A DNA stretch of 64,000 bases from a virus (lineage: Duplodnaviria > Caudoviricetes): positions 2,162 through 66,161 of IMG/VR virus record IMGVR_UViG_3300024999_000096. The stretch is one strand, 5' to 3'. A program made the position numbers and the translations under genes. Below are positions 3,214 to 63,699 of this stretch, piece after piece. The notes under the pieces were generated by a model. The model was not told the origin of the DNA, searched no databases, and saw only the letters and a list, made by a program, of their open reading frames with translations. The number at the start of each line of letters is the position of its first letter. Position 1 is the stretch's first letter.

Positions 3214-3395
3214 TCCCATCAAAAGTAAACTTTAACGGATTAGAAAGGAATGATTTATTTATGAAGCGATATCCTATTTATGTTAAGATGCTACGAGAAA
3301 TGTATGGATTAAACCATAAAATAGGGGATATAATTGGTATGTCAAACGTAGAACTTGCTCAAGAATATATTTCTAAAGGGTATGCGGAGTTAAGT

Positions 3396-3614
3396 AATTA
3401 ATTCTGTGTTAGTGATTTAAGAAAGGAATGATTTATTATGGCATCTAAACAAATAGCGGAAATAAAGGCTTATGAGTATGATACAAAAGAAGAAATGGAA
3501 AGAGAAATTTATGCCTTAAGAGATTCTAAGGAATGGAAAGTGCAAAATACCTATGAATTAAATGGAAAATGGAGAGCAGAATATTTTAAAATTAATCTGT
3601 GCTAGTGATTTAAG
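3396..3614 (+). repeat. About 25-bp direct repeat AATTAA(T)TCTGTGYTAGTGATTTAAG at 3396-3421 and 3590-3614
   Basis: Read directly; one indel and one substitution between copies. Confidence 0.8.
3438..3605 (+). CDS. 55-aa hypothetical protein (not in ORF track) bounded by a direct repeat
   Basis: RBS GAAAGGA, ATG 3438, MASKQIAEIKAYEY...INLC, TAG 3603-3605. Confidence 0.65.
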   Translation: MASKQIAEIKAYEYDTKEEMEREIYALRDSKEWKVQNTYELNGKWRAEYFKINLC

Positions 3615-4533
3615 CCCATATTCGCTATAACAGCAGACACTTATAACATCATGAATTATGGTGAAGGTGGGTTTATATCATAGTATTGGTTGCTAAATTA
3701 AATCTAAAGGAGAGTGAATTAATGAACGGATGGTTATCTCCAGAAGGTAAATTTTACAGCACTTTCAATTTGCTTTCTCATTATAAAAAGGCTGAAGAAA
3801 TAGCAGATTGGAATGAGATTAGTTTTAATATCATCGATCCCTTAACCAATACTCATCCTTGGTGTGCAGAAAGATTATTGGAAGTCTTAGGTTGGTTTAA
3901 AATTGGAAGTGATGAAAGAATTATAGATTTGGATATTGATACTTTGACGGATAAGCAAATCAAGTTTGTTTTGGTAAATAAATTAGTTTAATTATTGGAG
4001 GTAATTAATTATGAAAATTAAAGTTGATTTATTTTGTTTAAAGGATATTAAGGATATTTCATTCGATTGCACAAGCGACAACATGTATTCGGTAATTTTT
4101 GATACTAATAGTTCATATTTTGGCAGTCATATTGAACATTTAGTCAGAAGATTAAATGATGGCAGTTTTAAAGTAAATGCTCCTTGGAGGTATATTCCAA
4201 AACATCGTGAATTTGTTCCTGAAGTATATAGTCTTATAAGTGAGTTAACATACTGGTGTGAAAATTATTATTCACAATTAGAAAAGGTAAGTAAATAATT
4301 TTAAATTAAAGAAGAAAATTGTCGATTATAAAAACCTCAAACCATTGCTACACTAGGCTTTTACAATCTACCATTTACCATAAAATGTTATTTTTATTTG
4401 GTAGTAATTGTATAACACGAAGTCAAATTTATATCAGGAGTTGTACATAAATATTTCCAAAATTATTGTCCAAACCTATTGCAATTATTTTATTTTTAGT
4501 TTATACTAAGTTAAGAAATAAAAACATTAAGGA

Positions 4534-5862
4534 ATGATGAAAATGTCAAGTTTAAATTATGATGTCGAAAAAAGAGAAATTGGAATTCTAATTGAGCAAA
4601 TCGATAAACAATATTTTACTGTAGGAAAACATCTCCAAAACATTCTTTTAGAAAAGAAACAAGTAAAAAATATTCGTGAGTATATGGAATCTCAAAGGGG
4701 TTATATTTGGGAAGCTTGGAGAGCATCAAATTTAATTCAATCCATCTTATTAAAAAATCCTGTTCCTGAAATAACAGTCTATAGATCAGACAATAAAAGT
4801 CAGTATCGTAAGACACTAGATGGGCAACAACGTATGACTAGTATTTATTTGTTCATTAACAATCATTTTAAACTTGATATGTCTAAAACTATGTTTCCAG
4901 AATTTAAAATTGAGGATGAAATTTTTAAAACAAGTGAAGTATTAACTGGGAAAACCTTCTCAGAACTTCCTGAATTATGGCAAGATATCATTAGAGATTA
5001 TCAACTTCGTATTACAACCATGAATAATTGTACTGAGGAAGATGCTGAAAAAGCATATGTTCAAATGAATTCAGGTGCTAAAGGGCTTAAAGCTTCTGAA
5101 ATCAGAAAGGCAGCTATGGGTATGAATACAAGGAAATTCTTTAGATCAACTTTGGATAGTGATTGGCTTTTACATGCCATGACTCCATTATCAACTAAAG
5201 GTAATGCAGGGGATGAAATTTTATCTCAAATCATCACGATTATACATAATAACAAAGCAATCGAGTTATCGAAAGATAATATCGATAAAGTAATTTACAG
5301 TTTTAGGGATTCAGGATTGCCTGAAGAAATTCAAGAGGATGTTACAAATATATCAATTTATCTTAATCGAGTCACCAATAAGTGGATAAGTGATAAAAAG
5401 AAGGAGGATGAAGCACAAGGAAATAAAAGAGTTAAAAATTATTCAACCTATCGTTATACATGGTTAAATAAAACCCACACAACCATGTTAATGTATTCAG
5501 CCCATAGAGCTATTAAAAATGGTATTGAATTTGAAAAATTTTCAGAATGGGCGTATAAATTCTTTCAATCTCCATCAGTAAAATATAAACAAGGGTTACA
5601 AGACAAAGTTAATGAACTAAAATGTGTTGAATTAAGACTAAGTGCCATTGACGAAGAATTAAGCAAGTTTTATCCAACTGTAGAAATTGATGAACAAATG
5701 GAATCATCCCTACAAACCGAATCTTATGACCATGATATATTAGAAACGTCTCACGAGTTCTTAAATCAAGAAGGTGATGTGTTAGACCAAGAAGAACTTG
5801 ATACAGACAAAGAAGATGCTAAACATATTCTTGATATCATTAACACCACCAATATAGCGTAA
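4534..5862 (+). CDS. DUF262 (GmrSD N-terminal, ParB-like) domain protein
   Basis: QRGYIW, LIQSIL..PVPEI, LDGQQRMTSI and MNSG motifs; acidic tail; no HNH domain seen. Confidence 0.85.
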   Translation: MMKMSSLNYDVEKREIGILIEQIDKQYFTVGKHLQNILLEKKQVKNIREYMESQRGYIWEAWRASNLIQSILLKNPVPEITVYRSDNKSQYRKTLDGQQRMTSIYLFINNHFKLDMSKTMFPEFKIEDEIFKTSEVLTGKTFSELPELWQDIIRDYQLRITTMNNCTEEDAEKAYVQMNSGAKGLKASEIRKAAMGMNTRKFFRSTLDSDWLLHAMTPLSTKGNAGDEILSQIITIIHNNKAIELSKDNIDKVIYSFRDSGLPEEIQEDVTNISIYLNRVTNKWISDKKKEDEAQGNKRVKNYSTYRYTWLNKTHTTMLMYSAHRAIKNGIEFEKFSEWAYKFFQSPSVKYKQGLQDKVNELKCVELRLSAIDEELSKFYPTVEIDEQMESSLQTESYDHDILETSHEFLNQEGDVLDQEELDTDKEDAKHILDIINTTNIA

Positions 5863-8818: not shown

Positions 8819-11800
8819 ATGTTAAATGATTCAAAAGTAGAAATCAGGCTATATAATAATGAGAAAGGATTTTACTACATAGAAGTAGATATCAATACTA
8901 TTACTGAATTCGGAATTGTAAATAAAGTATCTTGGAATAACAATGGTACTTTTAAGAAATGGGTGAAAAGAGGATATGTACGGACCAACAATGAATTCTA
9001 TTTAATTTGGAATGAAGGAGTTGTTAAGGTATTGAAGGAAACCTTAAAGGGCAAATACAAATCTTCTAAATCTTCTTGTGTTGAGTATAAGAATGATGCA
9101 GAACGAAAGGCAACAGATTGGTCTTATAAAGTTGTTCTATAATTTTTAAGGAGTGGTAATTTATGCAAAAAATATAGAGAGACAAATTAACAAATAAACT
9201 CATGATCAATAGACACTCAAGATATAATACTATTATTGAAAAGGTGTTTGTTTATGAGGTAGATGGTACTACATACGATATCACAAATGAATTTTATGAT
9301 ATTAAGAAAGATATGAGATTATCTGTTTTCTTACTTCACTTTCCTAGATTTAATGAAGGTAAAAATTTCGTTGTTCAAAACAAAAGGCAGAAATCAAAAG
9401 AGAGACCAAACTGTAATTTGTATATTTCTAAAGGCGAGAGAATGAAGATTTGTGCTTGATAAATAACTTCCAATGAAAACCCGATTTCATGCTATATTTG
9501 AAAATGAAAGGATGATAAATCAAATGGAAGCAGAAAACAAATTCAATCAACTATGTGTACTCCAAGGAACAATCTTAGGAGATAATTCAATTCAAGAATT
9601 TGAACAATTCTTCATAGATAATTTCAATGCAAGAGTAAAATTCTGTGAAGAAGTTAAGACAAATGGTAGTGTTAAACGCAATGAAGAAGGTGGGCGTAAT
9701 GATATCTTGTTCTATATCCACGATGATGATATGTCTCATTTTTCAATAAAAAGATTAGCATATGGTATAAGATGGTGGGAAGATGTTGTTTCCTATAATG
9801 ATAATTCTTATTTATATTCTCAGGATGTGTTGAATAGGTATCCGGTAAGGTGGTAAGAAGAAAGGATTGATTGACAATGGCAAAATGGAATTATAACCTT
9901 GGAGAAGAAGGATTAAAATTGCGAGAACTAACCGTAATTTCGAAAGAAGCAGAAACCATTGATCAAATTGAAATATGTTGCAGATCGTTATTAAAACAAT
10001 TAACTGACAAAGATAAGGAATATTATGAAGATAAGATTGAATACTTAATAAATTTAATTGCAGGAGAAGCAGATACTATTAGAAATAATCCAGATGAAAT
10101 TACTAAGGAATGGGGATTTGATGATATAGAGGAATTGGTCAATTCAAGATTATCTGAGTTTTACGATATTTGTGATGGTTGTCGATGTTGGGTAGAGTTT
10201 TAAATTCTCCGATGAGTAATAGATTTCAAAGTAAATTTAAAAGGAGTGATATTCTAATGGAAAAGAAATGTCCGTTCAAACCAATTGTTGTGGTTGAAGC
10301 ATATAAGTGGTCTGGTGGCAGAGATATGAATCAAGGAAGTGTGCAACATACTAATTCTTTTGCAGAATGTGATGAAGATGAATGTATGGCTTGGAATTCT
10401 AGTAATTCTACTTGTAAAAGATTAGATCAAGTAGTTATAATAGAAACTATAGAAAAATCAATTACTGAAAACGAACAAATCAAAGATGCAACTTCGATTA
10501 AATCTCCATGTGGAGCAAAGACCTGTTCTGGATGTCCTGATTATGGTTATGCTAATGAATATCCTTGCCCAGATTGGTGTGAAGAAGAAATTCAATCAAG
10601 AAAGAATCAGAAATTCCCAAATAAATAAGGATGTGATAATTTGAGCATAAACATTGCTTGTAAAGGTTGTAAATTCTCTTCACAATACAAGGGAATTAAC
10701 AATAGATGGTGTTCTCTTAGGAATGGAACTGTAACTAATATTCGTAATTGTAAAGATAGGAAGTAATATTCCATCCTAACAGAAAATTAAAATGCTTTAA
10801 TTAAAAAAGAAAAGAAAGAAGGGATTTATGATGGATTTAGAATTGGAAATTAAAAGAGACGATAAAATTAAAGAATTATTAAATGGATTTAAATCTGGAT
10901 TGGGAGAAAGGGTTAAAACCCATATTGAATCAAGTAGATTCCCATATACTTATGCTTATGATTTCAAACGCCTTGGTGGTGGTTCTAGAAGTGATACAGG
11001 AACCTATTTGAGAGAAAGTTATAAAGATGATATTGAAGAATACGCAAAAGAAATATTATCAAGAGCATTTAGTTTTATGTTTAATAATTATGCAGAAGAT
11101 TTTCTATATGATATCCTTGATGAAAAAAGTGATACAAGAGCAAGAAATGTTTATAGTTTTATAAGGGATGTTTATATTAAAAACTAATCCCAAGAAAGAC
11201 TCATTTTAAACGATGAAAATGAAAGAAGGTATTTATTATGAAAAATATACAAATGATGAATTAAAGCAACTTATAGGCAATATTAACGAAGAAATAATAC
11301 AGAAAAAGAATGAATTAAGTTTATTACATGACAATGTAAAACTATATAAAAACTTATGTAATCATAGTGATTTAACTATTAATGATTGGGGATCTGCTGA
11401 TTGTAAAATATGTGGGAAACATCTTAGTTGGTATTGCCCTACTTCCCCAACTTTAGAATGCGATTATGAACAAGAAGATGGAAGTTATAACGAAGATTCT
11501 TGCAGATATTGCGGAGATCCAGAAGAAAGGAAGTAATAAAAATGTCTAAATGTTTAAGATGTGGTCATTGTTGTAAAGGTTATCTATGCTTTGTGCCAAA
11601 ACACAAAATCAGTAACTTATCTCCTGATTTTCTAGAAACTTTAAATGAAGATAATTTAGATGATTATATCAATGAAAATATTGAAGAACAAGGTTCTATT
11701 TGTAAATGGTTAATTGTAGATGAGCAAGGATTACATAGTTGTTCTGCTTATGAAAGAAGATCAAGTATGTGTAGGGATTATAATTCTTTGATTGGAGTAT

Positions 11801-13878
11801 GTCGTATTGGTCAGGCATATTGGAAAGATAAAAATGATATTCCTGAAGAAATCAAAAGTATATTAGGAGGTAAATCAAAATGAGAAGCGTTGTAGATATT
11901 GTGGAAACCAGAAACAAACTGAAGGACTCAGTTGATAAAATCAATATAAGATTGAGAGAAATTGAAAATGGCAGAAAATTTACTGAGTTAAACCAAAGAG
12001 AACAAGATTTAGTAGGAAAACTTTTCAACTTGATGTGTCACTATAAAGACCAAGTAACTGCATTAAGTTTTGTTTTAAACGAAGATAATAAAATTAATGA
12101 TTATAAGTGGCATCCTATTTTTAAAGAATTTGAAGAATTTTTAGTAAAATTAAATGATTAATTGCAAAATCCCAAGAAATACTTATTTTATTGTACAAGG
12201 AAGTGATTATAAGTGAATGTTCCAAAATGTAAAGAATGTGAATTTCATAAAATATATCCTTATTCAATTGGAACTACGGATAGACATTGGTGTAGTCATA
12301 CTAAAGTAAAATATTTTAATTATTTGGATAGAAATATATCATCTAGTGAATTGAAAACAAGTCCTAAATGGTGTCCCGAGAGAACATAAATTAACAATTT
12401 CAATAGATCAAGGGAGGAGAAGTAAAATGGAAGAAAGAACATATTCACTAATTTGTAATGCGATTAACTGGTTAAAGAATCCTTGTGCAACAGATGAGGT
12501 TAAAATTCAAGAAGCATTAGATTCTTTAAAAAGTATTCCTGAAATGAAATGGTTTTATAGTCAACTATATGAAAATAAGTGAGGAGGAAATAAAATGTCA
12601 TTACCAGAAGCAACTATGAACTGCCCTATTTGTGATAGTCCTGAACATACTTTGTTCCCCATTTTAGAAGGAAATTATAGTGGCTCATATGTATGTTCTA
12701 CTTGTAATCAAATGTTGTGGAAGAACAGAAATGATCCAAATTATAAAATACAAAAATATAGGTGGAATAAGAAGTTGCAAGATTATATTCCAATTGGATA
12801 ACAATTTTCCGTAATCTCATTTCAAAAAATCAAGCTATGAGCCACTTTCAGGGTTCACTACACCCTATAAAAATTGCATTTTATTTGAAATATTGAGTTT
12901 AAAATTTAGGAGGAGTGTTTTTAATGATGAAAAATTTTTATTTAACAGACTCGATGGATAGGTCAGAAAAAATCATAGCAATTAAAGAATTTTTAAATGA
13001 CTACATTAATGAAGTAGAAAATTCTGATAGTGATTATGTAAAGTTTAATTGTGAGGAAACAGTCGAAATATATAAAATAATTTTACAAGTTATGAATTTG
13101 TAGGAAGAAAAATTTATGAAAATTAAAGTAATCCGCAATTGTAAATCATGCATATATCATTACTGGAAAGATATTGAAGATGATCAATGTTATGAAGTAG
13201 GTGGTTGTCTTCAATTTTCTCCTATTGGATTAAGATTAGAAGATGTTGAAGTTATTATAGAATAATCGGAGATACCTCTTGCTATTTCGTTAGATTCATG
13301 ATAATATAAATCTATAAATAAAATATTAGGAGGTACATAAAATGTCAACCGCAAGAGAAAAACACATTGCAGATATTAATTCCTTATTAGTCAAATACGG
13401 TGCTGTTTTAGACAGATGGGGTATGTATCACATCGGAAATTATAAATTTGATACACGAGCAGTAAATCTTAAAATCTTTTCTGGTAAGATTAAAATTGTT
13501 TCTACTCCAATTGGTAAATTAACTTTAGAAGAATTAGAGAAAAGATTAAAAATTTATGCAAAGGAGGAAATATTATAAAATGTATAGTGAAAGTTTAAAA
13601 GATTGGTATAAACCAGTAAGAGTTTTTGAGTTAACGTGGAAAGACGGAAGAACTGAAATAATTAAAGGATATTCTATTGCAGATGCTTTCGATTGTGCTG
13701 GATATAACATTAAAGATATGAGAAAATTAGGTTTGTTTTCTTGGAAGCAGATAAAATAGAATTACCATTTAATCTTCAAAATTATAAGGATGTGATAAAT
13801 ATGATTTATGTTGGAATATATTTAGTTCTAACAGCATTAATTTTAGCATTTAATCACGGAGCACACATGAACGGTTAA
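8819..13878 (+). CDS. Run of short hypothetical ORFs, many Cys-rich
   Basis: ORF track plus RBS; separated by the recurring IR-N6 motif. Confidence 0.6.
11542..11883 (+). CDS. YkgJ-like CxxCxxCC cysteine-cluster protein
   Basis: CLRCGHCC...CKWL...CSAYERRSSMCRDY. Confidence 0.7.
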   Translation: MSKCLRCGHCCKGYLCFVPKHKISNLSPDFLETLNEDNLDDYINENIEEQGSICKWLIVDEQGLHSCSAYERRSSMCRDYNSLIGVCRIGQAYWKDKNDIPEEIKSILGGKSK

Positions 13879-15709: not shown

Positions 15710-18700
15710 ATGAGTTACAAAGAATGTTTAGGATTGGCAGGAGCAGAGGTATTAGTATTTAAAAATTTCGGAAGTTATCAAGGAGATTGGTGGGCAAAAG
15801 TTAATTACCAAGGAGAAACAGGATGGGTACATGGTAGTTTTGGATCATGTTCAGGATGTGATGCTTTTGAAGCAGAATTTTGGGGAGAAAGTCATTACGA
15901 AGATGAAGAAAACTACAACGAGTATCATGATTATTATGATTTAAAAGACGGATGTGCAAAATGTGACGAATTGAAAATTAAGTTGATTGAATTTGGAAAA
16001 GGATATTTGGATGGAATTATGAGTCAAGAAGATGCTGTTAAAATAGCTTCAGAAAATCTTGAATGGGATATGGACGCTCAAGAAATGATTGATTTTGTTA
16101 AATTAAATAATATTGGAGGGATTGAATAATGAAAGAGGAAAAATTATTATTACAATTTGTAGATGGTGGGATTGTAGATATTAAACAAGATAATTGGAGT
16201 TCGCCAGGATGCGAAACATGTGATTATGGCAGTAGCTATGTAAATGAATTGAGTGTCTATTTGACAAAATATAAAATTACAGCAGAAGTAGATCAGATGT
16301 ATAATTATCTTTTGAGTGATGGAGATTTGTTTAAGATTTTTCTTCGTAATATTGAAGAGATAAAAACAATGACCGAAATGGAATTTATTAAATGGTTTGA
16401 ATCCCAAATTAAATCTTATACAGATGACAATGGAGCAGGAGTAGAGTATAGGTATACAAATAATTAGTTAAAACTTAGCATTCGCGGTAAAATAATTAAG
16501 AAAGGATTCATATATGCAAGCACAACTAAAACCACAAACTCAAAATATAAAACTTATCCAACCTAAAGTATTTAATTTCCGTAAACATTGGTCTAAAAAA
16601 GTAAAACCATATTTATTTCATAAAGATGTTCAATATGCTTTAGATTATGGTATGAATTTAATGATGGAATTATGGCGATATGAAAATAAAATCACTAATG
16701 AAAAATTAGAATCAATAAATGAATACATGAAAGATTGGTACTCATGGATTCCAGGTAGTCCTCCATATCATAAAACATCCTCTGATTATTGGTGTTATCA
16801 TCGAAAACCATTGAAACATTCAGTAGGTTGGTATCAATGTAGGCATTGTTGTCATTGGATTTGCTATTTTTGCATCGAATTAGGAATGAAAATATATCCT
16901 CAACTTGATTGGTATATTATATCTGGTAGAAGACATTCTGTAGCAGTTGGATTTAAGTATGGTCAACCTTATATGATATTTGATATACTGAATTTCGAGG
17001 ATATGTCAGCAGAGAATATCTTAGATTTTGCTGATAAAAAGATGACTAAGAAAAATTATGAAAAGAAATGGAAGAATAAAAGGTAAATAGAAGGAAGAAA
17101 GGATGATTAATTATGCGTGAACTAGATGAACTTATCAACTTGATCACTGAAATCAATAGTGATCGGTATTTATCTTATCAAGAAAGAAAAGATAAACTAA
17201 AAGAACTTAATTTAACATATGAAGAAATGGAATCTATTTTAATGTCTGCGTGTGAAGTCTGGACTAGCATAAAGGAGGAAAATTAAATGTTAAGTGCTAA
17301 ATTTGAATTTGATTTCTCTGATGATAAACTTATTTCTAGACTTATCAAGGAATATAATGAATGTCAAAGTAAAGATTCAGATATTGTTTTAAATCTTAAA
17401 GGTCATGAACTGCAAGCTATATTAATTAATTTGGTTTCAGGTAGAATACCTTATCAAGTATGTATGAATTACTTTATGCCCGAATTAGCAAATAAGCAAT
17501 CGAAAAATTAAATCCAAACAAACTGCGATTTAAATGGGAAATAGGGGGTGATAAAATGTATCTATGCAAATATATAAAATATACTTATAAAGGATATGAA
17601 TGTCCATATAAAGAGCAAAATGATCATCTTACAATTAAGGCAATAAATAAAAATGATTACAAAAATTATATTATAAATCATGTTAATTGTCCTAATGACG
17701 TTAAGCATGATAAAAATGGGTCGGCTATATGTTATATTATTGAAGAATAAACACTTAAAAAGTCAGTTTGTTTGGATTTACGAAAGGAGAAATTTACTAT
17801 GCCATTACTAAGTTTTAAAGAAATGTTAAAGGAGATACAAGAAGAAGGGTTTTGTAATCTTCCTCTGAATTGTATAAGTGGTGAAGAATATGAAGAATGG
17901 TTATGAAGAATGGTTAAGAAAAGATAAAACTGAGGAGGAACAAATCAAATGAAAATAACTACAATTATGGAAACAACAAAGCAAGAGAAAACTATCATCT
18001 ATGATGCTCTACAAGTCTACATCAATCATCTCACCAAAATGCTATCAGACAGTCCAGAAGGTACTTCTAAGACACTAATCATTACAACACTAACAAATAC
18101 CAATCGCCTATTATCTGAGATGGAATTAAGCATGTAAAGGAGCATAAACAAAATGTCTGAAACAGAATTATTAATCCAAGAAACTATTATCTATTTATTG
18201 GAAATTAGAAAAGATTATTCTAATAGTGTTGCAATGGATGATGTAGGTAAAGTAAGGACGCTAACCAATGCTGTAGAATTATTGCATCAGTATTTAGGTT
18301 TAATGCATTAAAGAAAAGAGCAAAGTAATATTATGATGTCAAATACATGTATTTCTTGTTTAAGATATGATAATTGCTATTCTAAAGGTAAACTATGTGA
18401 TATTCTAAACAATGATTATCATTATTATGAAGAAGATCCAATATCAAAAGATTGGAATAATGGTCATTGGGATGATAGTGGAGAATAATTAAAGAAAGGA
18501 ATCAGATGAATTAAATTATGAGAATAAAAATAATCAAAGCAAGTTCAGATTCATTATGGTATTCTGAAAAACACGAAAATTGTATTGGTAAAGAATATGT
18601 AGTTTTAAATTCTGGGACAAATAAATATGGTTTATATTATATAGTTAAACATAGTGGGATATTTAGTTATACCGTTGAAGTAGAAGATTGTATTTTAGTC

Positions 18701-21700
18701 AATTAAAATTCCACACTTATCGGATAATAAGAAAGAAGGTTAAAGATAATGATTCGTGTTAATTATACACAAGAAGGAAATCCTATTTCAGATTGGGAAG
18801 TAAATAAATTTGTTTCTGAATTAATAAAGTTTAACAAAAAACATGAAATGAAAAATATGATAAATATATCTACTGAAAATGTAGTACATGCTTTTAGATT
18901 TGCTGTAGTAAATAAAGATATTGCATTAGATGATATTACTTTTTATCATGATGGAGAAAAATTAAATCTAACTAAATATGGTACTTGTGACCCGTGGCCT
19001 AAAGATTATCTGTGCTTTCAAGATAATTTAATGAGAGCAATGGTAAAAGCACAATGTAAAATAAGAAAGGAAGAAAATAAATGAGTATAATTCATACAAT
19101 ACCAAGTCCTAAATGGCCAAAACCATTAATGGAGGGATGTGCAATGAAACAGTTTAAAAAATGCTCAATCCTTAAAGAAACAAACACTCACTATTCAGAC
19201 TCATCAGATAAACTTTGCAACATTCTTCCATTTGGAGAAATGGATCGTACAGATGGTAAATATACACATGGAGATATAATGCCAATGACTGATGAAGATA
19301 AGGCAAGAGATAGAGAGGAGATTAAAATATATGTGGAAAATAAAGAAATCGCTTTTAAACTAATATGTTCTTGTGGGAATGTAATTAGGGGCATTGTTGG
19401 AGGAAAATATGATAGTGATAAATTACATTGTGATTGTGGTTTAGTTTGGAAAGTAAATAAACCTTATAGAGAGGATGATAAATAATATGAAACAATGTAT
19501 AGATTCAAACCAATTAAAAGAATTAAATCCAGACCAATTTAGAAACCTATGTAAGTTAGTAGGAGATAAATATCATTATGATAATACAGATGAGCAAATC
19601 AATAAAGCATTTCAGAAAGAATATTTGACAATGTATATTTCAATATTGGAAAAGACTAATATTGGTAAAATGTTAGAAATATTATTAGGTTGTAGTTGTA
19701 TAGATTGTACAATGAGACTACTAGATGAACGAGTGAGAGGTAAAATCTATGGTATGGAATTGCGTGATGCTCTATGGGTGTTAATTAAAGAATATTTGAA
19801 TACAGATTAAATTCGTTCTTTCATGCTACTTGGGAATAAGAAAGGAAGTGATAAAATGTTCTCAGTTTACAATTACTTAAACAATGGCAAACAACCAATA
19901 TTTAAAGAATGCACAGATGAAAATAATGAGAAATATGAAGGTGCTTTTTGTCCATATTGTGGTGAGCAAATGTATTATACTGAATGTTATTTGAAAACTC
20001 CTATTAAAAATGAAGAATATGATCCAAATGATATATGTAGTAGTCAGACAATCGCATTTAATAAAATTATAGATTGTATTAAATTACCAGAAGAAAATTA
20101 TAATGGTTGTGGGGCTAAATTTTCATTAGATAATGAAGAAATAGGTTATTATGAATATACTAGTAAAGGTTATGTAACTACTTCTTGTTCTTCGATTTTG
20201 GAAGGAGAGTAAGTCATGAAATTATTTATATTAGTTTACCGCATTGGAGATAAAATGTTTCAAACAATTAATAATAGTCATGACCTTGAAAATAATTTGA
20301 CAATGATTAACAACACAGATGATTCAGAAGTAGTTTCAATTGAAACCATTAGATAACAATATCCATTAAATTCTTTAATTGAATTGACGGAGAGGAGAAT
20401 TTGTATGACAAAACTAGAAAAAATATTAGAGTTAGGTAAGTATAATGCTGATGAACTGATTACTTTTGGATGTCCTATGGATTTTGGAATGAGAGGGGAC
20501 ACTTCTTTATGTCCTACTGGTTGTAAAACGTGTTGGAATGAAGAATGTGAAGAGTCCCAGAAAAGCATTGATTTATTGGAGGAATTATATGAAAATATAT
20601 GTTACAAATGCAGAAGTATTAAAGTTAAAGGAGTTTATTAAAATAATCAATGATAAATTTGCAACACTATTATCCAGAAAAATTGCTAAAGCTCAATATG
20701 AATCAATGATAAGAAGAACTAAAAGTATTCGTGGTTATGACAGATGAATTATCCGATGGAATTGTCATTTTAATTTCCGAGAATTAAAATTATAAAAACC
20801 AAAAAGGAGACATAAACAATATGAAAAATCTAGAGTTGTTAGCAATTATATTAACAATGACTACAATTGGTTTTCTATCGTGTATTATTTCTACAAAACT
20901 GGCAAATAAAATAAATAAGAAGAAACATGAGGCTAATCAAAGTTTGAATATGTATATATTAGATTCTTTTAAGGTAACTGATCACGATAAATCTATAGAT
21001 GATGTTTATAAAAACTAATTTAAGTAAATTAATTATTTTTTATTGACATGTATTTGATAATGTAGTATAATTATTAAATAAGGAATTATGAGGAGGTGAA
21101 AATATGTTTGAAGATATTAAATGCTTATTTAAAGGTTGTAAATGGGTTTATGATAATGACTTTGCGGATGGATTAAATGGTAGAATATGTGGAAAAACAT
21201 ATATTTGTTCGCGTTGTGGTCTAATAAAGGATATTACAATCCCTGATGGTAGAGTTTATATTAGACAGGGTGTTAAACCTTATAGGAAGGCTAATACATA
21301 AATAAAATATCTAAGTAAAAATTCTATTTTGTTATGGAGAAGGGATGAGAGAAATACATGAGTCAACCAGAAAAGTTTTATCAATTATATCTTAGAGAAA
21401 GAGTTATTCTTGATGATATAGATGATTATATTGATCAATGGCATAATGGAGACAGCAAAGAGCAAATTTATAAATTCTTAGGTATGAGTCAAGACATTTA
21501 TAGATTATGGGTTGAAACAAATTGTTTGCCAAAAACAAATAATGATGAGGGAGGTTTTACATATGATCAAAGTAATTGAGACAAATCTATCAATAGATGA
21601 AGAAAACACAATCAAAGACCATCAATCCAGAGTAATTGAAGTTGAATCTTGGGAGCAATATGTTCAAGAAATAAAAGATTGCAAAGTAGTTATAAGAAAT

Positions 21701-25577: not shown

Positions 25578-27235
25578 TTGGGAATTCCCTATAATAAGGA
25601 GATGATAAATAAAATGACTAATCCAGAAACAAAAGAATACAATAAATTATCTATCACTCAAAAAGAAGAATTACAATCATGGATCAAAGGAAGATTCACA
25701 CATCGCAAAACTATAAACACCAATCATACATCATATGGGTATAAACACGTTTTTGAAAATGATCGGCATGGATTTTATATTTCCAATGAACAATTCAAAG
25801 GTGCTATGTTAGAGGCAGGATATTATCCAAGAGATAAATCATCTAAAAATTGGAGTTTTTATGTTAAGTTTTTCGCCTTAGCAAATGATGATTATTGTTA
25901 ATACTGAGGAGCAATTAGAAGCATTAAAAAAAGGAGGAAATATTAAATGACAGACATAAACAAAATTTATAAATCCAAAGGTTATCAAAACCGTAAAGAA
26001 TTTATTGAAAGTTTAGTTGAAGATGTTGATGTTCCTTTGAAAAAAGCATTGGATATTTTAGATAATAAATATTTTGATGAATTAGTTTTGTTATTGAGTC
26101 ATGAGATTGATGTTAAAGGAGGTGAGTAAATAATTGAGTTACATTTATAATGAAAAAGAAATAAAATCAAAAGAAGACGCAATTATTGTATTAGAAGAAA
26201 TTAGAGCATATCAAAGTCTCGAAGGACTTCCTTTTGATTTTGGTAATGGATTAATTAAAAACGATTTATCTTATGGCACAGAGCATGTATATTGGAAAAT
26301 GGATGCTCAAGTTTTAGAAGATATGATTGAAGATTGGGAAGAAGATATTGAACGGGTTAACTGGTTGAAATCTCAATCAAAAAATAAATATAAAAAGAAA
26401 AGACTAAACAGGCATTATAGAAAAGTAATTGATAAGAAAAAGTTAATTAAATTATCTAAAACCTCATGGTGGATAGTATATTATAACGAGAAAGAAAACA
26501 GATATATTCGATGTTATTATAATGGTAGAAAAAGTTATGCAAAATGGTGTTCTAAGAGAGCAGTAAGGAATAGCAATGATTTTTCGTTAATAGGAGCTGG
26601 ATATAGGAAATGTTTTAATTATTGGTATACTGTGTTTTAAGATAATTACCCTAGAAAATGTATGTTTTAAGGGAGTGAAAAGATGGAAGAGACAGAGGAA
26701 ATATTTACTTGCGGAGAATGTGGAAAGCAATTTAAAGTTTATATAGTGTTTTGCGAACATGAATTAACATGCAATGGGATACAAGAAGATAAAATAAAAG
26801 GAGAGTAAAAATATGAATATGCCAAACCTAGTCAGACATGGTTTATATCGAAGTTTTGAATCTGGTTTTAATAGCGAGGCTATTAATATGTTATACAATA
26901 TTCCAACCAAGAAAAATCCAGAAGAAATTTCAGAAATGGTAAGAGAAACTTGGACTTATATTAAAGAAGAAAATAAAAATAATCATGTTGTGAGTCATTT
27001 CTTTTATATGCTTGGATGTGCTGTCGATAGGTCATGGGTGAAAGATATATCATTTGATATTGTTCAGTATGGATTAAATTATAAAGATGATGAAGTTATA
27101 GATTTAACTATCCAATTAATTGAATCATGGAATGATAAAGATATGCTTGATTTGTTGTACAATACTGAAATTAAAGCAGAGTGGCTTCAGGAATATAAAA
27201 TTGCAGTATTGAAACAGTTTGATTATTTTATGTAA
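25578..27235 (+). CDS. Hypothetical ORFs (4-5)
   Basis: ORF track. Confidence 0.55.
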
Positions 27236-27285
27236 ACCCATCAAAGTCTAGTTTTAATCTAAATATAAATAGAGGAGAAATTAAT

Positions 27286-27669: not shown

Positions 27670-28521
27670 AATGAGTGAGGTAGTATATTACAAAGGAAAA
27701 TTAATACCAGTTGATTTCTTAATTAATGAAACTTTAGAGGAAAGATGTAAAAGAATAATTGCAGATGTAGATTTAGAAGATTATGAATCATATCAAGAAA
27801 TGTTAATGGATGATTATAATTATTACGAAGATTATGTCATACATAATGACATTTTATATTCTGTAAAAAAGGATAGATTAGATCCTGAGCAAAGTATGTT
27901 TATGGCAAAGACAGATTATGATACTGGCATAGTTGATTTTGAAGTTAGATATTATAATGGTGGGACTAGTTTTGATGAAGCTATTGATTATGCATTTAGG
28001 AATGAGAAGTAGGAAGGAAGGGATAAATAAGTGGCATATCAAGATTATTCTAACGAAACAGAACAATATCAAGACATGATAGATTATTTTCATAATATCA
28101 AAGTTGGAGATAAAATTAAGTTTATTCTTGAGAAACAAAAATATACGGTAAAAGCAAAGTCGGATAGATATTTAATATGCACTAAACCATTCAATTTAAA
28201 AAAGACAGTATTGTATACAATAATTGATATACAAAGACTGGTAAGAGGTACAAACAATATGATATTTAACCCTTATGATTATAGTGTTCAAGAGGATATT
28301 GATAAGTGTTTAGTAGATTTAGATTATCATAATAATGGTGTTGAAGTTACTCATAGAAATTGTATTAAGTTAGATATTCAAGTCCCATGAATTCCATATT
28401 TTAACTGATAATTTAGTTTCAAGAATCAAGCTATAGGCGGTTTGTACGCTTGTGAAATTATAGAAATGAGGCAATTATTATAGAATTGATTAAATATACA
28501 AATATAAACTAAATAATAAAA

Positions 28522-33616: not shown

Positions 33617-34085
33617 AGAAAGATGGAATTTAATTCGTAAAATACAGGAGGTTAAAATTTGAAAACCTTTGAGGATAAAATCGAAGATTATTTTAATGAG
33701 TTTATTAATCACCCAAGTTCAGATAATTATTATTTCTTTCGAGGATATGTTTCAGCAATGTTTGTTTCGAGAAATATTTCAGAAGATCAATTTGATGAAT
33801 ACTTAGAAAAAGCAAGATTAGTTTACTATAAATGACGAATTTGAAAGGATATGAACTATTATGATTGAATGTCCCTTTTGCAATAGTTTATCAATTTGTA
33901 ATGCTGACGATGAGGATTATTTATTTTACTGTGAGGACTGCGAGGAATCATTTGGGAGATATTGTGAAGTAGCAAAATGTCCATTTAAATATGAAAACGA
34001 AAAATTATGTAATCATTTTAATAATGGAGTTTGTATAATTGAATAAAAATTAAGATTTATCGTATTTTAAGGAGGAAAATGAAAA

Positions 34086-34736: not shown

Positions 34737-35139
34737 TCCGAGGAAATTATTCTTTTCTGGGAATTTAAAATTAGAAAGGATTTGATTAATTATGTATAAT
34801 AAACCAATTCCATTTATAAACTTCTTCAAAACCAAAAGAGTCATAGAACTTGCCGATTTAGTAACTACTGAAATTGAGGCAACCGAACAATATTATGTTC
34901 ACAAATGCAGATATACTAATGAGTATGGAGAATCATATTCAAATGGAGATATTATTAGTAAAACTGAATTTTACATGATTCTGCCTAGAGCAAAAAGACC
35001 AATTGTGTTAAGTGATACTTACATTGATTTAGGATTTAATTTGAATTAAGATATTTATAAATTCAAATATAATTATTGTATTTTGTCTAACAACATGATA
35101 CAATAATTATATTAAATCTCTAAGGAGGAATTACATAAA

Positions 35140-36018: not shown

Positions 36019-36968
36019 AAATGTATAAATACATCAATGAGCCACATGATGATATTCAAAAAGAGGTATTGTGGAAAACTGCTTCAATACTTGCCAGTTA
36101 TTTAAAACCTGAAGATGATACAAAATTAAGAGAAGAATTTAATGTTTATAGGGATACTCATGCTGAAAAAGATGAAGAATTTGAGCCTTGGTATGTGTGG
36201 GTTATGAATAGACTTGATGTAAGTGTTACGATTAAAAAGTAATCCCAGAAAAGTGTGGTTTTAAACCAAATAAGGAAAGGAGTGATTTTAGTGTCAATTA
36301 CCCTAATTAAAGTTGCGGAACATATTATATTTAGTGGAGTAAAAACAAGTGAAGAATTTAATGAAAAAAATTAAAGGCCAGTGGGAATACAGAAAAGGTA
36401 AAACCATTTCAGATATCAATTTAGCAGTACAAAAAGGATTAAAATTGGGTAGAGGTAAGACTGAAAGAGAAATTGATTGTATTGCTATGTATTTAGAAAC
36501 TGTTTTGAAGAAAGTAAAAGCTCCTACTAAAAAGGGAAAGATAAACATGACATTTTTAGTTAAGGTTGAAAACACAGATGATGAAACAATTGCAGGATTA
36601 TTAGAATACGGAACAGTAGATGATATATTAGTGGGTAATATTTGCATAATGACAGCAGATAAAGAATCTAAAGACAAAATTAAATTATGCTATGGAGTTT
36701 TAAGCGTAGAAGAGGATGAAGATTTTAAAGCTATGAATAAGTAAATTCATTTGTTTGAAAGGAGGATAATTAAAATGAAAATTGATTTAAAATTACAAAG
36801 CGACACATATAATACACATTGTGAAAATTTAGTTTTAAGTTTTGAAATTATTGAAGATAAAGATTATGTGTGGGTTCAGCTTGGAGATAGAGAAGTTGGA
36901 GTTAAAAAAGATGAATTTAAGAAACTGTTGTCTATTATCTAATATTAAAGAAAGGTGTGTTTATATTA

Positions 36969-37292: not shown

Positions 37293-37342
37293 CTTCCCGT
37301 CAATATCTAGTTTTAAAGTGTAAGAAAGAAAGGAAGAGTTTA

Positions 37343-46227: not shown

Positions 46228-46377
46228 TTGACATAGCATTACCCAAAATGCTATAATCATAAATAGAAACATAAATAATAAAAGTAATCAGGCATTCTTC
46301 TTGACGTATCGGCATATTATATATTATAATAGCATTGCGTATTATTAACCAATACATAGCAACATAACTTGTTGCTG
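46228..46377 (+). promoter_or_regulatory. Tandem promoters with operator-like inverted repeats
   Basis: TTGACA-18-TATAAT containing ATAGCATT-N6-AATGCTAT; TTGACG-18-TATAAT; AGCAACA-N5-TGTTGCT. Confidence 0.65.
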
Positions 46378-46403
46378 ATATGTCAAAAGGAGGAATAAAT
46401 ATT

Positions 46404-47759
46404 ATGAAACAAGATCGTCAAATTCTTGAGGATATTCTTAATTTAGTCATTGAAGATTATGCTAATGACAATCAAATTCAAGAGCAGGTTGTAGGTAAAT
46501 TATTAGAAAGAGGTATCCCAAGGGGTAGAACTACAGGTATATTCACTAAAGCAATTCCTTTAGTCTATGTTGAAGAAATTGAACTATGTTTATTTACAAA
46601 ATACCTTTATGGTTATACTCACCGAACAGAAATAAATCCAGATGAGTTCTTTACAGAGATTGAATTGTCTTCTGCTGATTATTACAAAAAACTTGATAAA
46701 GAAAAGGTTAAATACATTTTACTTCATAATGTTGATCAAATAGATGATAGTCAGTGGTTATGTACAAAAGAAACTTATCAAAATATTAATCTTTATATGG
46801 GTAATGGATTATTGACATATAATCCAAACACTCAAAGACAACTCTTAAAAAGACGAAGTGGAAACAGAATTGTTGAATCTATTAATATTGACAGTAAGAA
46901 AGTATCAGAAATTACAGAGTCAATGATAGATGGTTCTTTTTGTACTAATGCTATTATGTGGAACATTCGTAAAATAAATGGGCAAGAAAAGTTTAAGTAT
47001 GATCTTAAAACTAGAACGTTATTAATTGAACCTGATAACATGTCTACTCTGGTTGACATAATTGATGGTGCGAATCGCACTTGTGGTATGTTAAAAACTG
47101 TTGAAACTAAAAATGATATAGATCGAGTAACATCAATTTATATTCACCACGTTACTGAAGAGCGTGCCAATGAAATAATTCGACAAGAAAGCAAAAGTAC
47201 GCAAATTGAAACTGAATGGGTTGATTTTAAAAATACAGCTAATCCAAATATGGAAGTAGCAAAAGCTATTAATTCTAGGCAAAGGGCAAATGAAATGTTT
47301 AATCGCATAGCCTTAAATGAAAAGGAATTGATTGTCGAAAGCAAATTCATGACATTTGATACTTTGTCAAAATCTATTGAATTTCTTTATGATCTTAAAG
47401 AGGAACCAGTTATCAGAACGTCACAAGTTGAAGATGATATTGTAGAGATATTTAATAATGTTATTGGTATTTATTACTCAAAATTCAAAGCAGAATTATC
47501 TAATACCAAAGAAACTTCATATCTTGCACATAATAACATGTTTATGGGGTATATTATTTTAGGAGATTTATTAAAGCAAAAGTATGGCGATGACTGGAAA
47601 CCTGAATTAGTAAAAGTATTAAACTCTTTAGACTTTGATAAATCAAATAAAATTTGGAAGAAAATTGGAATCGAAAACCATGTAAATTTATCTACATTCA
47701 AAAAGATTTCTGATTATTTTAAAGATGTTGTTTATCAACATGAGAAGGAGGTATCATAA
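46404..47759 (+). CDS. DndB/DGQHR-like protein, SPbeta YopQ(SroE)-like
   Basis: LTYNPNTQR...IIDGANR; about 450 aa; translationally coupled to an integrase-like gene. Confidence 0.65.
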   Translation: MKQDRQILEDILNLVIEDYANDNQIQEQVVGKLLERGIPRGRTTGIFTKAIPLVYVEEIELCLFTKYLYGYTHRTEINPDEFFTEIELSSADYYKKLDKEKVKYILLHNVDQIDDSQWLCTKETYQNINLYMGNGLLTYNPNTQRQLLKRRSGNRIVESINIDSKKVSEITESMIDGSFCTNAIMWNIRKINGQEKFKYDLKTRTLLIEPDNMSTLVDIIDGANRTCGMLKTVETKNDIDRVTSIYIHHVTEERANEIIRQESKSTQIETEWVDFKNTANPNMEVAKAINSRQRANEMFNRIALNEKELIVESKFMTFDTLSKSIEFLYDLKEEPVIRTSQVEDDIVEIFNNVIGIYYSKFKAELSNTKETSYLAHNNMFMGYIILGDLLKQKYGDDWKPELVKVLNSLDFDKSNKIWKKIGIENHVNLSTFKKISDYFKDVVYQHEKEVS

Positions 47760-60906: not shown

Positions 60907-62899
60907 ATGAAATGTATATGTGGCAATGTCTTACAATTTTCAGACAACAGCATTAAAACTGAAGATGGTAGATATGGAGAGGTTCGTCCTGTATATTATT
61001 GCGATATATGCAATATCGTTTACGATGGTTATGACCTAGATTGTGAAGATAAGTATACTATTATTTCAAAGAAGTATATAAAATGGTTCAATAAACATAC
61101 TGAAGAACTTTTAAATGAATATCTTCTAGAGATAAATAATACTCAAGAGATTTCGATGGATTATAGAAAGGATGATTTATAAATCATGTTGATGAAGGAA
61201 GATGAAATTAAAAAATATCTTGACAATGTAATTACTCATTGGAGAAATCGTAAGAAAAAATATGAAGACATAATAGAAAAAGAACCAGATGTATGCACTG
61301 ATATGACAGAACAATTTGAAGAAATTTTAAAGGCGAGTTGTTATATAGATGCTTATCAAAGTGTAAGAGTGAGTTTATTTGGTGAATTGTTACCAAATAT
61401 TTAAACTCCCAATTTTATATACGTAGAAAAGAAAGGATGATTAGAATGTTTCCATTTAAATTTATATTGAATAAGGAAATCATGGAGGATGTTGATGGAA
61501 CAATATTTGAAGCAGAAGAAAACGCAGATTGTTTAACTATTAATGTAAGTTGGAAAGATGAAAGTGGTTGGGAGGATAATGTTGACTATGGAATAAGTCA
61601 AGTAGAAGATAATATTAATAAGAAAAGATGGTTGATTGTAGAATAAGAAAGGATGATAAAATAATGACAAAAACAGATATTTTACTTTATGGAGCGTTAC
61701 TTGAAAGTGACATGTATGCTGATGGATATGGATCAACTAAGGAAGATACAAAATTATTACAAAAAGCTTTAATGAAAGTTTATGGAGTATCAGATACAAA
61801 TTTAGAAGAAGCATTAAAAGCAGAAGAACAAATCCATGAAGATATGAAAAAGTTGGTTGTAGAATTTAGGTTTAAGATAAATGAGTATTTAGGTTAAAAG
61901 GATTATTTTATACTAAGTTAGAAAGGATAAACAAATGAATCAAAGCGATATTGCTATAATAATTATTGTATGGATGTTAATTTCTTTATGCTCTTGGGGA
62001 TGTTTAACTAAGTGGATATTTAGACCTTCACATTATGTAGTAGGACATATAATTTTTGCAATATCTACACTACCTTTTACAATGATTGTTATTTTACTAT
62101 TTATTTTATTAAAGTTGTTCGACTTGTTTCTATATATTTGCAGTATAAAATTGCCCCATAAATTTTAACTTTCAAGGGTTTAGAAGGAGAATTATATGAT
62201 TTTAAACGGAAGAGAATTTAGAAAAGAAATCAACTTTATTGAAAACTATACTCCTTCAAAGAAGAGAGCAGATGAAATTGTAGATGATATCGAACAAAAA
62301 ATACTTGATAATAAGTTGAAAGGAAGATGTGTTTATACCATATCTAGAGAGGATATGATTAAGCACAGAAAAGAGATAGAAGATGAAATTCAACATAGAT
62401 TTACATATTTGCATACTGGATTTCAATTTATATCGTTAACTTCTATCATAGGAGAAGCACAGTTTATAATTGAATGGTAGACCTTTAAACTTATGGGTTT
62501 ATGGGAAAGTAATAATAAAATAAATAAGGGAGAGAAGAAATAATGAGTAAAATTGGATTAAATGATTCTATAATGGATGTAATGGTTAAAATGAGTGATG
62601 GAAATCCTGGTGCAATAACATGTTTGATGGACATTATGCAAAAGCAAGACTGGTATGGTGGAGCAGATAGTTTTATCATGATATTATCTTTTGACACTTT
62701 AGAATTATATGGATCTAATTTGTACATATTGTGGAGTGATTGCTGTGATAGAGATTTAGTTAAGTTGGAATTAGTATTGAGAAATTGGCAAATGGGGAAT
62801 TTAACAAAAGAAGAAATACATAAAAATTTATCTCAAGGTAGAGGAACTCCGTTTACAAATTTAAAATCATTAGACGAATTATTTAGTGAAGAATATTAA
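60907..62899 (+). CDS. Run of short hypothetical ORFs
   Basis: ORF track. Confidence 0.55.
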
Positions 62900-62951
62900 A
62901 TCAAATGAAATCAAAAGAACATTTCAAGCTAAATAAAGGAGGAAATAATTA

Positions 62952-63458
62952 ATGAAAGTATTTCTAGGTGGAACTTGTAATGGTAGCATATGGAGAGATA
63001 AGTTGATTCCAATGCTTAATATAGATTATTTCAATCCAGTTGTAGAGGATTGGACAGAAGAGTGCATGGTAGAAGAGAGAAAACAACGTGAAACGTGTGA
63101 TTATTGTTTATACGTAATTACTCCATCTATGAGTGGGGTTTATAGTATTGCAGAAGTTGTAGATGATAGCAATAAGCGTCCAACAATAACTATATTCTGT
63201 GTATTAGATTCTGAAGTCCCTATAATTACAAAAGTATCAAATCCAATGTGTTATATTGGGAGTCCTGATATTAATCTATTTATAGATAAGATAAATTATC
63301 CTAATGAAAAAATCAACTTTTCTATTGGAGAAATGAAATCTTTAAATCAAGTCGGCTTAATGGTTGAGCGTAATGGTGGTAAATACTTTAAAAGTCTAGA
63401 AGAAGTTACAAATTATATCAATAAAGAATATAAAAATTTATTGAATAAACTACAATAA
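62952..63458 (+). CDS. Nucleoside 2-deoxyribosyltransferase-like protein
   Basis: KVFLGGTCN.S.WR...FNPVVEDW...GVYSIAE. Confidence 0.8.
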   Translation: MKVFLGGTCNGSIWRDKLIPMLNIDYFNPVVEDWTEECMVEERKQRETCDYCLYVITPSMSGVYSIAEVVDDSNKRPTITIFCVLDSEVPIITKVSNPMCYIGSPDINLFIDKINYPNEKINFSIGEMKSLNQVGLMVERNGGKYFKSLEEVTNYINKEYKNLLNKLQ

Positions 63459-63699
63459 AATTGCATTTTGATCGTACTTAAAGGAGGTGAAAGTTAATGG
63501 AAACAATTAATGAGTTAAAAGTGGATAGAAGTAATTTAAGATATGCACTTCAATGTTTATTAGATGAATATCGGCAATATGTTGATAATGCATGTCATTG
63601 TGAAGAGTTTGAGAATGAAGAGGATGATGAAGTAGAACAATTATGTCCATATTGTTATGCTAAACACGTATTAAAATAAATCAAGAAAGGAAAAATTAA

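Follow-up and report, generated by a model that had tools for sequence, protein, structure and literature searches.

It is still an open issue how large phages control and rearrange their 'ORFan' regions, with their fast gene turnover, and the promoter early stem-loop (PeSL) of the T4-type phages is almost the sole worked example. PeSL elements combine a sigma-70 early promoter with a stem-loop terminator and provide homology for recombination (PMC2839356, PMC4122927). The present analysis concerns a second, differently built punctuation element, a 26-base inverted repeat termed here the dyad, which recurs between small genes in a 64-kb part of a virus contig of 66,161 bp (positions 2,162 to 66,161 of the IMG/VR record IMGVR_UViG_3300024999_000096; this whole stretch of 64,000 nucleotides is called the window). 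The dyad, with its fixed 6-bp gap, stays while the genes on either side of it are replaced, and the lineage that carries it is uncultivated, from groundwater, and by its gene content a jumbo phage lineage of SPbeta type. Going by the accounts cited above, PeSL elements and dyads have in common that they are short conserved intergenic motifs, repeated in the hyperplastic small-gene regions of a large phage, and apparently also that they are found where related genomes swap unrelated genes. Unlike PeSL elements as described there, the dyads have neither promoter hexamers nor a stable stem-loop, and most of the swap junctions in this lineage carry no dyad. In terms of genome ecology, PeSL may be considered the nearest known analogue.

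Another comparison is offered by the SPbeta repeated element (SPBRE), a 15-bp motif in promoter regions which is bound by the SPbeta repressor MrpR at about ten places (PMC10516654). As far as that report describes it, SPBRE is like the dyad a repeated intergenic element of an SPbeta-like phage with an MrpR-family repressor of recombinase fold. The dyad differs in sequence from the A-rich SPBRE, is not placed at promoters and has about twice as many copies.

The arm-6-arm geometry of the dyad is that of the core sites of Xer, Cre and Flp. The dif and pdif sites have two different 11-bp arms, for XerC and XerD, around a 6-bp spacer; pdif sites alternate in orientation around modules, and on Acinetobacter plasmids many pdif copies form the borders of small gene modules. 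The dyads share with them the two inverted arms and the 6-bp centre and differ in their arms, which are of about 10 bp and both of one consensus. The attC sites of integrons are imperfect inverted repeats by stop codons. What defines them is structure and not sequence, namely a folded single strand whose outer core sites are conserved, and they need IntI, attI and a cassette promoter. Likewise, the dyads are imperfect inverted repeats near the stop codons of co-directional promoterless small genes, but in them the sequence and not the structure is conserved. The heterospecific sites of the lox and FRT type have symmetric arms and a short spacer, as is the case here. Tyrosine-recombinase partner sites need a matching central region, and in engineered lox variants differences in the spacer make sites mutually incompatible; to our knowledge, no natural array of dozens of heterospecific lox-type sites has been described. 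An original prediction for the window had listed 47 sites with the core TnAAW-N6-WTTnA, had read them as an integron-like or pdif-like cassette array of a gene-capture system that builds the hypervariable region, and had offered operators of an integrase-fold repressor as the alternative.

A dyad-symmetric element in the linkers between small genes

The dyad is an imperfect 10-6-10 inverted repeat of 26 bases, TCCCATAAAA-N6-TTTTATGGGA, with the half-site consensus TCCCATAAAA. Written out, it reads T-C-C-n-A-(T/G)-n-A-A-A and T-T-T-y-A-W-n-G-G-A, with six bases free of constraint between the two. The copies occupy short linkers, from a stop codon to the next ribosome-binding site, between co-directional small genes. 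There are about 23-26 of them in the window, and 19-26 matrix sites in each of four relatives of 150-230 kb. Relatives of the window were found solely as IMG/VR contigs, up to 230 kb long, and are given here by handles such as G001 or L019. The dyad is real and lineage-wide and, as far as we know, was previously undescribed; the literature on SPbeta repeated elements, MrpR and SPBRE, PeSL and YonO promoters yielded no description of it, such a motif not being searchable as text.

The evidence for the motif comes from its spacing and from its length. In the window as a whole, the literal core at spacer 6 gives 76 matches against 69.1±8.3 expected from 100 second-order Markov simulations, and it does no better than the same core at other spacers (92 matches at spacer 3, 83 at spacer 7 and 76 at spacer 8). 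In the intergenic DNA (119 segments, 11,127 nt, including 12 nt upstream) spacer 6 gives 28 matches against 14.9±4.0, a count reached in 2 of 300 dinucleotide shuffles, and spacer 7 gives 27 against 14.8±4.0, while no enrichment is seen at spacers 2-5 and 8-10 (19, 13, 10, 9, 15, 6 and 11 matches, respectively). Hence the claim of a preferred spacer stands for intergenic DNA, where spacers 6 and 7 are about twofold enriched, and falls for the window at large, where spacer 6 is at chance. The 6-nt spacing is genuine, though about half of the core matches are background.

The signal of the literal core arises because a longer motif lies beneath it. The pattern CC-N4-AAA-N6-TTT was found 10 times against 0.7 expected. 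For CC[CG]A-N11-TTTTA the + strand has 7 copies where 0.28 would be expected, and other spacings give 0-3 matches. A 21-nt pattern, CCNANNAAANNNNNNTTTNAW, has 11 matches against 0.67±0.89, and none of 100 shuffles gets to 11. With a weight matrix, 23 sites on the + strand score above 14 bits, as compared to 0.6 in third-order Markov simulations; the matrix was built from 59 dereplicated copies of the window and its relatives and is hence partly trained on the window's own sites. Strict matches in the relatives number 6-10 per genome, against 0-1 for a reversed control. Most dyads are intergenic (22/24, 22/28, 25/30 and 21/27 strand-hits in the four genomes counted) and lie chiefly in the small-gene arm. 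G007, which is less closely related and comes from a different sample set, shares proteins with G001 (about 30-70% identity in translated matches) and has 4-5 sites, three of them perfect palindromes. A search of IMG/VR with the perfect pattern returned 18 stretches, few of which are relatives (G006-G009).

The sequences of the 47 originally listed sites are as they had been described. Only 18 of them fit TnAAW-N6-WTTnA exactly, the remainder being looser than the definition they were listed under, and the matrix supports 22 (>10 bits) and leaves 25 at background; several of these 25 are an A/T run beside a TTGAAAGGAG-type ribosome-binding context. What had been said of the placement proved sound. 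All 12 of the sites said to have a stop codon as their left arm do begin with the stop codon of an open reading frame (ORF; the calls were mechanical), the position between stop codon and ribosome-binding site is borne out, and so is the lack of sites in the regulatory block at 41.6-50 kb, no matrix site above 10 bits being found anywhere from 40226 to 56968. The two inverted arms around a 6-bp spacer, of the size of a tyrosine-recombinase core, are present as well.

Symmetry was assessed from the anchor AAA-N6-TTT (686 distinct occurrences), so that neither arm was preselected. A peak of CC lies exactly 6 nt upstream of the anchor (53, against 1-26 elsewhere) and a peak of GG exactly 6 nt downstream (48, against 18-36 elsewhere), and the two occur jointly 12 times against 3.6 expected; the CC and GG noted earlier at the flanks are thus confirmed. 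Relative to gene direction, the stronger half can be either one, and many sites of the relatives are right-half-only or near-perfect palindromes. The upstream half is the stronger about twice as often (19 against 7 in the window, at scores above 16), which may be because the ribosome-binding site crowds the downstream half. About one third of the dyads are strong on the antisense strand alone.

The arms do not covary, the Watson-Crick counts being equal to the shuffle expectation at every variable pair. Nor do segments of 30 nt fold stably (mean minimum free energy -1.8 kcal/mol, against -1.5 in shuffles; mean z -0.15); several of the best-scoring dyads have a fold energy of 0.0, and a few fold well, such as 34737 at -9.0 kcal/mol. 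Rfam gave no match at any dyad, and no terminator-like hairpins were found on the + strand in 20.5-40.5 kb. There is no signal of -35/-10 hexamers by the dyads, whose flanks show just the composition of stop codons and ribosome-binding sites, and in several copies the ribosome-binding site begins 0-4 nt past the site.

Inheritance of the dyads in a mosaic background

The window shares with each of its relatives just 11-15 of its 64 kb at the nucleotide level, in gene-sized blocks that are mainly colinear, with few modules moved. The description of the region as hypervariable in gene-sized modules was therefore correct. Within one genome all spacers are distinct (0 duplicates among 19-26), so the shared central region expected of lox or FRT partner sites is not seen there, whereas 2-8 spacers are common to each pair of genomes, about 0.3 being expected by our own estimate. 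As the spacers are distinct within a genome and common between genomes, the dyads are inherited positional orthologues. For example, site 36243 stands, in 6 of 7 aligned genomes, between upstream and downstream genes that differ. Similarly, seven sites of the window have a same-spacer copy in a relative, with both 200-nt flanks scoring like random pairs.

The prevalence of dyads at the borders of replaced modules is not indicative that they drive the replacement. At gene boundaries beside shared genes (14 relatives or loci), those with a dyad gave 19 breaks of homology and 0 continuations, and those without a dyad, scored in the same way, gave 176 breaks and 31 continuations (Fisher p=0.083, the relatives not being independent of each other). 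As 176 of the 195 breaks lie at dyad-less boundaries, the dyads do not build the hypervariable region, nor are they chiefly responsible for the mosaicism. The expectation that breakpoints would fall in the sites is borne out to the extent that homology ends or begins inside several of them, and fails for the great bulk of the breaks. Homology ends within sites 34737, 36243 and 59879; at 34737 the homology to L019 ends at 34755 and that to L014 begins at 34743, so that the overlap consists of the inner arms and the spacer.

In pairs of sites anchored by their upstream flank alone (n=22), identity declines from 0.87 for the left arm through 0.75 for the spacer to 0.71 for the right arm, and beyond the site it is lost. 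By reading, the dyad is retained with the upstream gene in about 6-7 of 9 cases and with the downstream gene in about 4-5 of 10, which is no clear preference.

Positions 20501-40500 were also compared with the assembled contigs (not the reads) of four DNA runs from groundwater and sediment (X1, X3, X4 and X5). One contig variant drops one gene and the next dyad; it passes from 26670, within a dyad, to 27287 by way of 18 other letters. Another omits 36001-36235, thus ending just short of a dyad. The summed contig depth over this part is very high, with more than 1,500 variant positions and dozens of joints, which include a module shifted from 25928 to just past UvdE at 36005. Many strains of the phage lineage coexist in the same groundwater samples.

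Table 1. Dyads of the window and two proteins discussed with them (scores are matrix bits on the + / - strand)
Feature	Position	Strand	Score	Remarks
Dyad TCCCATCAAA-AGTAAA-CTTTAACGGA	3214..3239	+	22.4/9.2	Immediately past stop codon
Dyad	4376..4401	+	16.6/10.8	Identical 26-mer in G004, downstream flank unrelated
Dyad	9469..9494	+	22.4/12.0	Strict pattern match
Dyad, spacer GACTCA	11188..11213	+	26.8/1.0	Same spacer in G005 and G003; near-identical direct copy at 12170
Dyad	12170..12195	+	25.8/9.6	Strict match
Dyad, spacer ATTGCA	12863..12888	+	20.5/10.7	Same-spacer sites in G003, G004 and G005
Dyad, left of inverted pair	17513..17538	+	16.9/2.8	Pair lies around 64-aa gene 17556-17750
Dyad, right of inverted pair	17751..17776	-	-2.5/16.8	Strong half on - strand
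Dyad	20555..20580	.	24.9/19.9	Two good halves
Dyad	20752..20777	+	17.0/-8.1	
Dyad	26649..26674	.	22.6/17.0	Right arm reaches into ribosome-binding site
Dyad	27236..27261	+	25.3/1.0	
Dyad	28383..28408	+	24.0/4.3	Overlaps stop codon of 28031-28390
Weaker dyad	31417..31442	.	14.5/16.4	
Dyad	31574..31599	+	16.9/11.0	Right arm overlaps ribosome-binding site
Dyad	33824..33849	.	16.0/16.1	G004 orthologue retains spacer GACGAA, downstream gene different
Near-perfect dyad TCCGAGGAAA-TTATTC-TTTTCTGGGA	34737..34762	.	24.8/25.4	
Dyad, spacer GTGTGG	36243..36268	+	25.4/1.7	After UvdE module; same spacer in 6/7 aligned genomes
Dyad	37295..37320	+	20.5/2.6	
Dyad, spacer ATCAAA	40226..40251	+	20.1/9.6	Same or near-same spacer in G001, G003, G004, L017 and L019
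Dyad	56968..56993	+	22.8/0.9	Same spacer in L006, both flanks unrelated
Dyad	62154..62179	+	19.7/13.7	
Weaker dyad	62481..62506	-	7.1/15.6	Strong half on - strand
Dyad	63451..63476	-	13.1/18.6	Strong half on - strand
Small tyrosine recombinase, 226 aa	14391..15071	+		Pfam Phage_integrase 8.6e-27; catalytic domain and short N-terminus with weak zinc-ribbon match
MrpR-like repressor, recombinase fold	47759..48763	+		Pfam MrpR_N_CB 4.4e-18; PDB YopR/MrpR chains ~3e-11

What may act at the dyads

Since the dyads are symmetric, occur in both orientations and are conserved in sequence and not in structure, they point to a duplex-DNA site for a two-fold symmetric protein. The reading placed first, and held tentatively, is that the dyad could be the binding site of a protein with a regulatory or architectural role; a recombination site is placed second and an operator of the MrpR-like repressor third. 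The elements would be inherited dyad-symmetric sites in double-stranded DNA, about 20-26 per genome, in the linkers of the accessory (early) arm. A two-fold symmetric protein, either conserved in the lineage or supplied by the host, would bind them and act on gene expression at the gene boundaries, possibly by repressing it or acting as a roadblock, or through the chromatin organisation of long operons that lack terminators. The dyads may also supply short homology for exchange, as PeSL motifs do; being conserved islands in fast-changing DNA, they also end up at the junctions of replaced modules. If the binder were a regulator, its regulon would comprise about two dozen accessory-gene boundaries.

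Several points weigh against a protein-binding site of this kind. There is no host-type promoter signal at the dyads; without an attached promoter, a classical operator role has nothing to act on. None of the public runs that contain the window is an RNA run. Moreover, in 12 orthologous pairs aligned by eye the spacer is kept at 70 of 72 positions and the arms at 174 of 240, which is the opposite of what is expected of a simple operator. An automated flank-anchored set of 34 pairs, which includes likely false pairs from generic ribosome-binding-site leaders, did not reproduce this excess (spacer 0.69, arms 0.75). Finally, the 10-6-10 geometry, together with a catalytically complete recombinase in 7 of 8 genomes, would suit a recombination site equally well.

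It is accordingly worth setting out the recombination reading, which is considered unlikely. The dyads would be core-type sites of the 226-aa tyrosine recombinase (Table 1) or of a Xer-like enzyme of the host, by which flanking modules would be exchanged in register where genes meet, or genomes would be resolved or circularised. The recombinase keeps the full catalytic set, with R, K, HxxR, H and Y all in place when it is aligned to the chains of XerA and XerD, its best solved relatives. Among 8 genomes checked, a member of its family was detected in 7 (the window, G002 (L018), the L013 contig, G003, G004, G005 and G007), and its homologues in G003, G004 and G005 are 65-74% identical to that of the window; the dyad consensus is constant over the same genomes, while the repressor is just 27% identical. 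Yet the complete G001, with 19 dyads, has no Phage_integrase match in six frames. The recombinase comes from a very large chromosomal family of Bacillota, the 'site-specific integrase / YoeC' proteins of about 186 aa (1757 of 1913 candidates at E<=1e-10), and, sitting in the variable region as any accessory gene would, it looks like an accessory gene. The overlap of two homologies inside site 34737, the gene order of the relatives, largely colinear despite massive replacement, and the 64-aa gene bounded by an inverted dyad pair all agree with exchange at the sites, as does the continuity of homology across dyad boundaries, 0 of 19 against 31 of 207 elsewhere, though this difference is not significant and the dyad-less breaks outnumber the others by far. 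The contig variant that lacks the gene between 26649 and 27236 has 18 foreign letters at its joint and is not a clean site-to-site product. Neighbouring dyads never have the same spacer, and between such sites this enzyme class is not expected to insert or excise cassettes; simple cassette insertion or excision between neighbours thus does not fit. With no covariation and no stable fold, the integron-like array has to be given up: the hairpin with covarying arms is missing, and so is an adjacent IntI-type integrase, the 226-aa enzyme matching IntI4 solely at residues 157-213 (57 residues, E=2.5e-6; attI and Pc were not searched for). Of the likeness to pdif only the geometry is left. Both halves of the dyad follow one consensus. 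When perfect sites were sought in 185,579 species genomes, the 100 matches were scattered, many of them were long hairpins, and no clade had a single dif-like copy. The dyads are judged not to be cassette sites of the integron or pdif type, and a gene-capture system is at odds with the dyad-less breaks and with the complete G001, which has no tyrosine recombinase. In the recombination reading, the spacer peculiar to each dyad would limit its partners to the allele of the same site in another genome copy, be it a sister, a neighbour in a concatemer or a relative that infects the same cell. In the most far-reaching form of this reading, the genome would hold about 20-26 mutually incompatible lox- or dif-like sites, each with a conserved 6-bp centre of its own, recombined solely same-site between genome copies by the 226-aa recombinase or a host Xer; this form is more doubtful still than recombination in general. 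If it were true, gene modules would be reshuffled in mixed infections, in register and at the borders of genes, with no gene ever deleted, and the recombinase could resolve or circularise genomes at any duplicated site. A small recombinase as the binder would represent a new way to make recombination safe and in register.

Operators of the MrpR-like repressor, through which the accessory region would be silenced in lysogeny, had been the alternative of the original prediction, and they now appear improbable. The protein at 47759-48763 does belong to the MrpR/YopR family, in an SPbeta-like yopQ-yopR pair; a repeated intergenic element bound by MrpR has its precedent in SPBRE, and an arm-spacer-arm site would suit a recombinase fold. 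But the repressor is 92% identical to the window's in G001 and 27-28% in G003-G005, and the half-site frequencies of the dyad are the same in both sets of genomes. The stretch of 40.3-56.9 kb, with the repressor and its promoters, holds no dyad, the dyads are not located at promoters, and it is a separate A-rich box that matches the SPbeta operator, both in the type of its sequence and in where it lies. SPbeta MrpR is described as monomeric in solution (PMC10516654), and no dyad is seen in its 15-bp site. A role at the RNA level, as a hairpin in processing, stability or termination, or as promoters of a phage polymerase, is very unlikely and already largely refuted. It would agree with the placement from stop codon to ribosome-binding site between co-directional genes, with the bias to a strong upstream half, with the few copies that fold well and with the presumed YonO-like polymerase of the lineage. 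A hairpin, terminator or processing site was nevertheless ruled out by the lack of a fold (mean energy about that of shuffles, 0.0 in the best copies), of covariation or compensatory change and of an Rfam match, and by the copies strong on the antisense strand. A promoter was ruled out by the symmetry, the two orientations, the lack of hexamers and the ribosome-binding site, which in several copies is too near to leave room for a transcript start. The third of the sites that are strong on the antisense strand alone would be tolerable for neither a promoter nor an RNA motif. That the dyads are functionless, being chance A/T-rich matches or decaying mobile or duplicated sequence, is hardly credible. 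It could draw on the 25 of 47 listed sites at background, on the G+C content of 28% and on the literal core, not enriched window-wide; against it stand a 15- to 40-fold enrichment at a single exact spacing and one consensus in six related genomes, with positions conserved and confinement to intergenic DNA. For about 23 core sites chance is refuted.

The SPBRE-like box, the lineage and neighbouring features

The operator of the repressor is more likely to be an A-rich box of SPBRE type, which is a better candidate than the dyad. As derived here from phi3T, SPBRE is A-rich and precedes the -35 by a few bases, in agreement with the published 15-bp motif of promoter regions (PMC10516654). Of 145 strong promoters of host type, taken from five genomes, 52 carry a similar box, of the type AAAATAAA(A/T)T, 2-5 nt upstream of the -35 (TTGACA), as compared to about 2% of random 32-mers. 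In the window it is found at the promoters 33327 and 57793 (43297 and 46228 by eye), and it occurs also in G001 and G003-G005. This suggests that the SPBRE type of operator is conserved far outside Bacillus and gives a handle on lysogeny control in the lineage. The repressor has T and F/Q at the HxxR positions (phmmer alignment), and with these residues replaced it is probably not an enzyme. Likewise, SPbeta MrpR is listed as lacking the HxxR motif (Table 3, PMC10516654). In G003-G005 the repressor and its DndB-like neighbour are swapped for the 27%-identical type, while the genes upstream keep 65-83% nucleotide identity, and this looks like an immunity-type swap.

The window has a G+C content of 28%, and nearly all of its genes, mostly small ORFs without a known family, lie on the + strand. 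In addition to the repressor, an adjoining DndB-like protein and the 226-aa Phage_integrase protein (14391-15071), Pfam recognises AgrB, two MazF-like proteins, a C5 methyltransferase, UvdE, an NAD ligase, a GIY-YIG endonuclease and two GmrSD_N proteins. The order of the DndB-like and repressor genes is the yopQ-yopR order of phi3T and SPbeta. The largest relative, G001, of 230 kb and with a completeness rating of 100%, also encodes the same repressor, a PolIII alpha subunit, an intein-bearing ribonucleotide reductase and a CWB2 wall-binding protein. By the repressor, the yopQ-yopR-type pair and the gene content of G001, the window is assigned to the accessory (early) arm of a putative SPbeta-like jumbo phage of a low-G+C Bacillota host. 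The 226-aa recombinase was considered as a counterpart of SPbeta YopP, and this was rejected. The public runs that hold the window are metagenomes of groundwater and sediment, and nucleotide searches of a phage collection gave no match to it.

A 551-aa protein of G001 (L021:9189-10844) has an RdRP-family match (1.5e-09), which is presumably what a YonO-like single-chain RNA polymerase would give. Its ORF is followed by one of NUMOD3 homing-endonuclease type (adjoining, L021:11026-11694) and by an ORF of 320 aa, so the polymerase gene may be interrupted. In the window, positions 41558-48763 form a lysis-lysogeny block with the two MazF-like proteins, AgrB, a DUF5317 protein and the DndB-like and MrpR-like proteins.

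Among the dyads themselves, an inverted repeat of 26 nt at 17509-17534 and 17755-17780 (85% complementary, 220 nt apart) encloses the 64-aa gene 17556-17750 and its ribosome-binding site, and the inverted dyad pair around this gene is a possible invertible switch. Direct dyad copies at 11186-11208 and 12168-12190 (family D8), 91% identical over 23 nt, flank a module of three ORFs; in G005 the first D8 site directly precedes a homologue of the second ORF of that module. Two long intergenic gaps that each adjoin a dyad, 12802-12914 and 28391-28521, have AATCAAGCTAT in common, followed by a G+C-richer stretch (by eye). Rfam gave no match for either gap, and they may harbour a candidate structured RNA that is undescribed. 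Direct repeats at 3242-3259 and 3420-3437 (100%) and at 3396-3421 and 3589-3614 (85%), families D7 and D17, lie about 180-190 nt apart around the small genes of 3210-3605, which suggests that a small gene and its leader were duplicated locally in tandem. The sole Rfam match in the window is a Pistol self-cleaving ribozyme at 2737-2810 on the + strand (54.4 bits, E=3.8e-07, the gathering score being 34.5), which occupies the intergenic gap preceding the gene at 2836.

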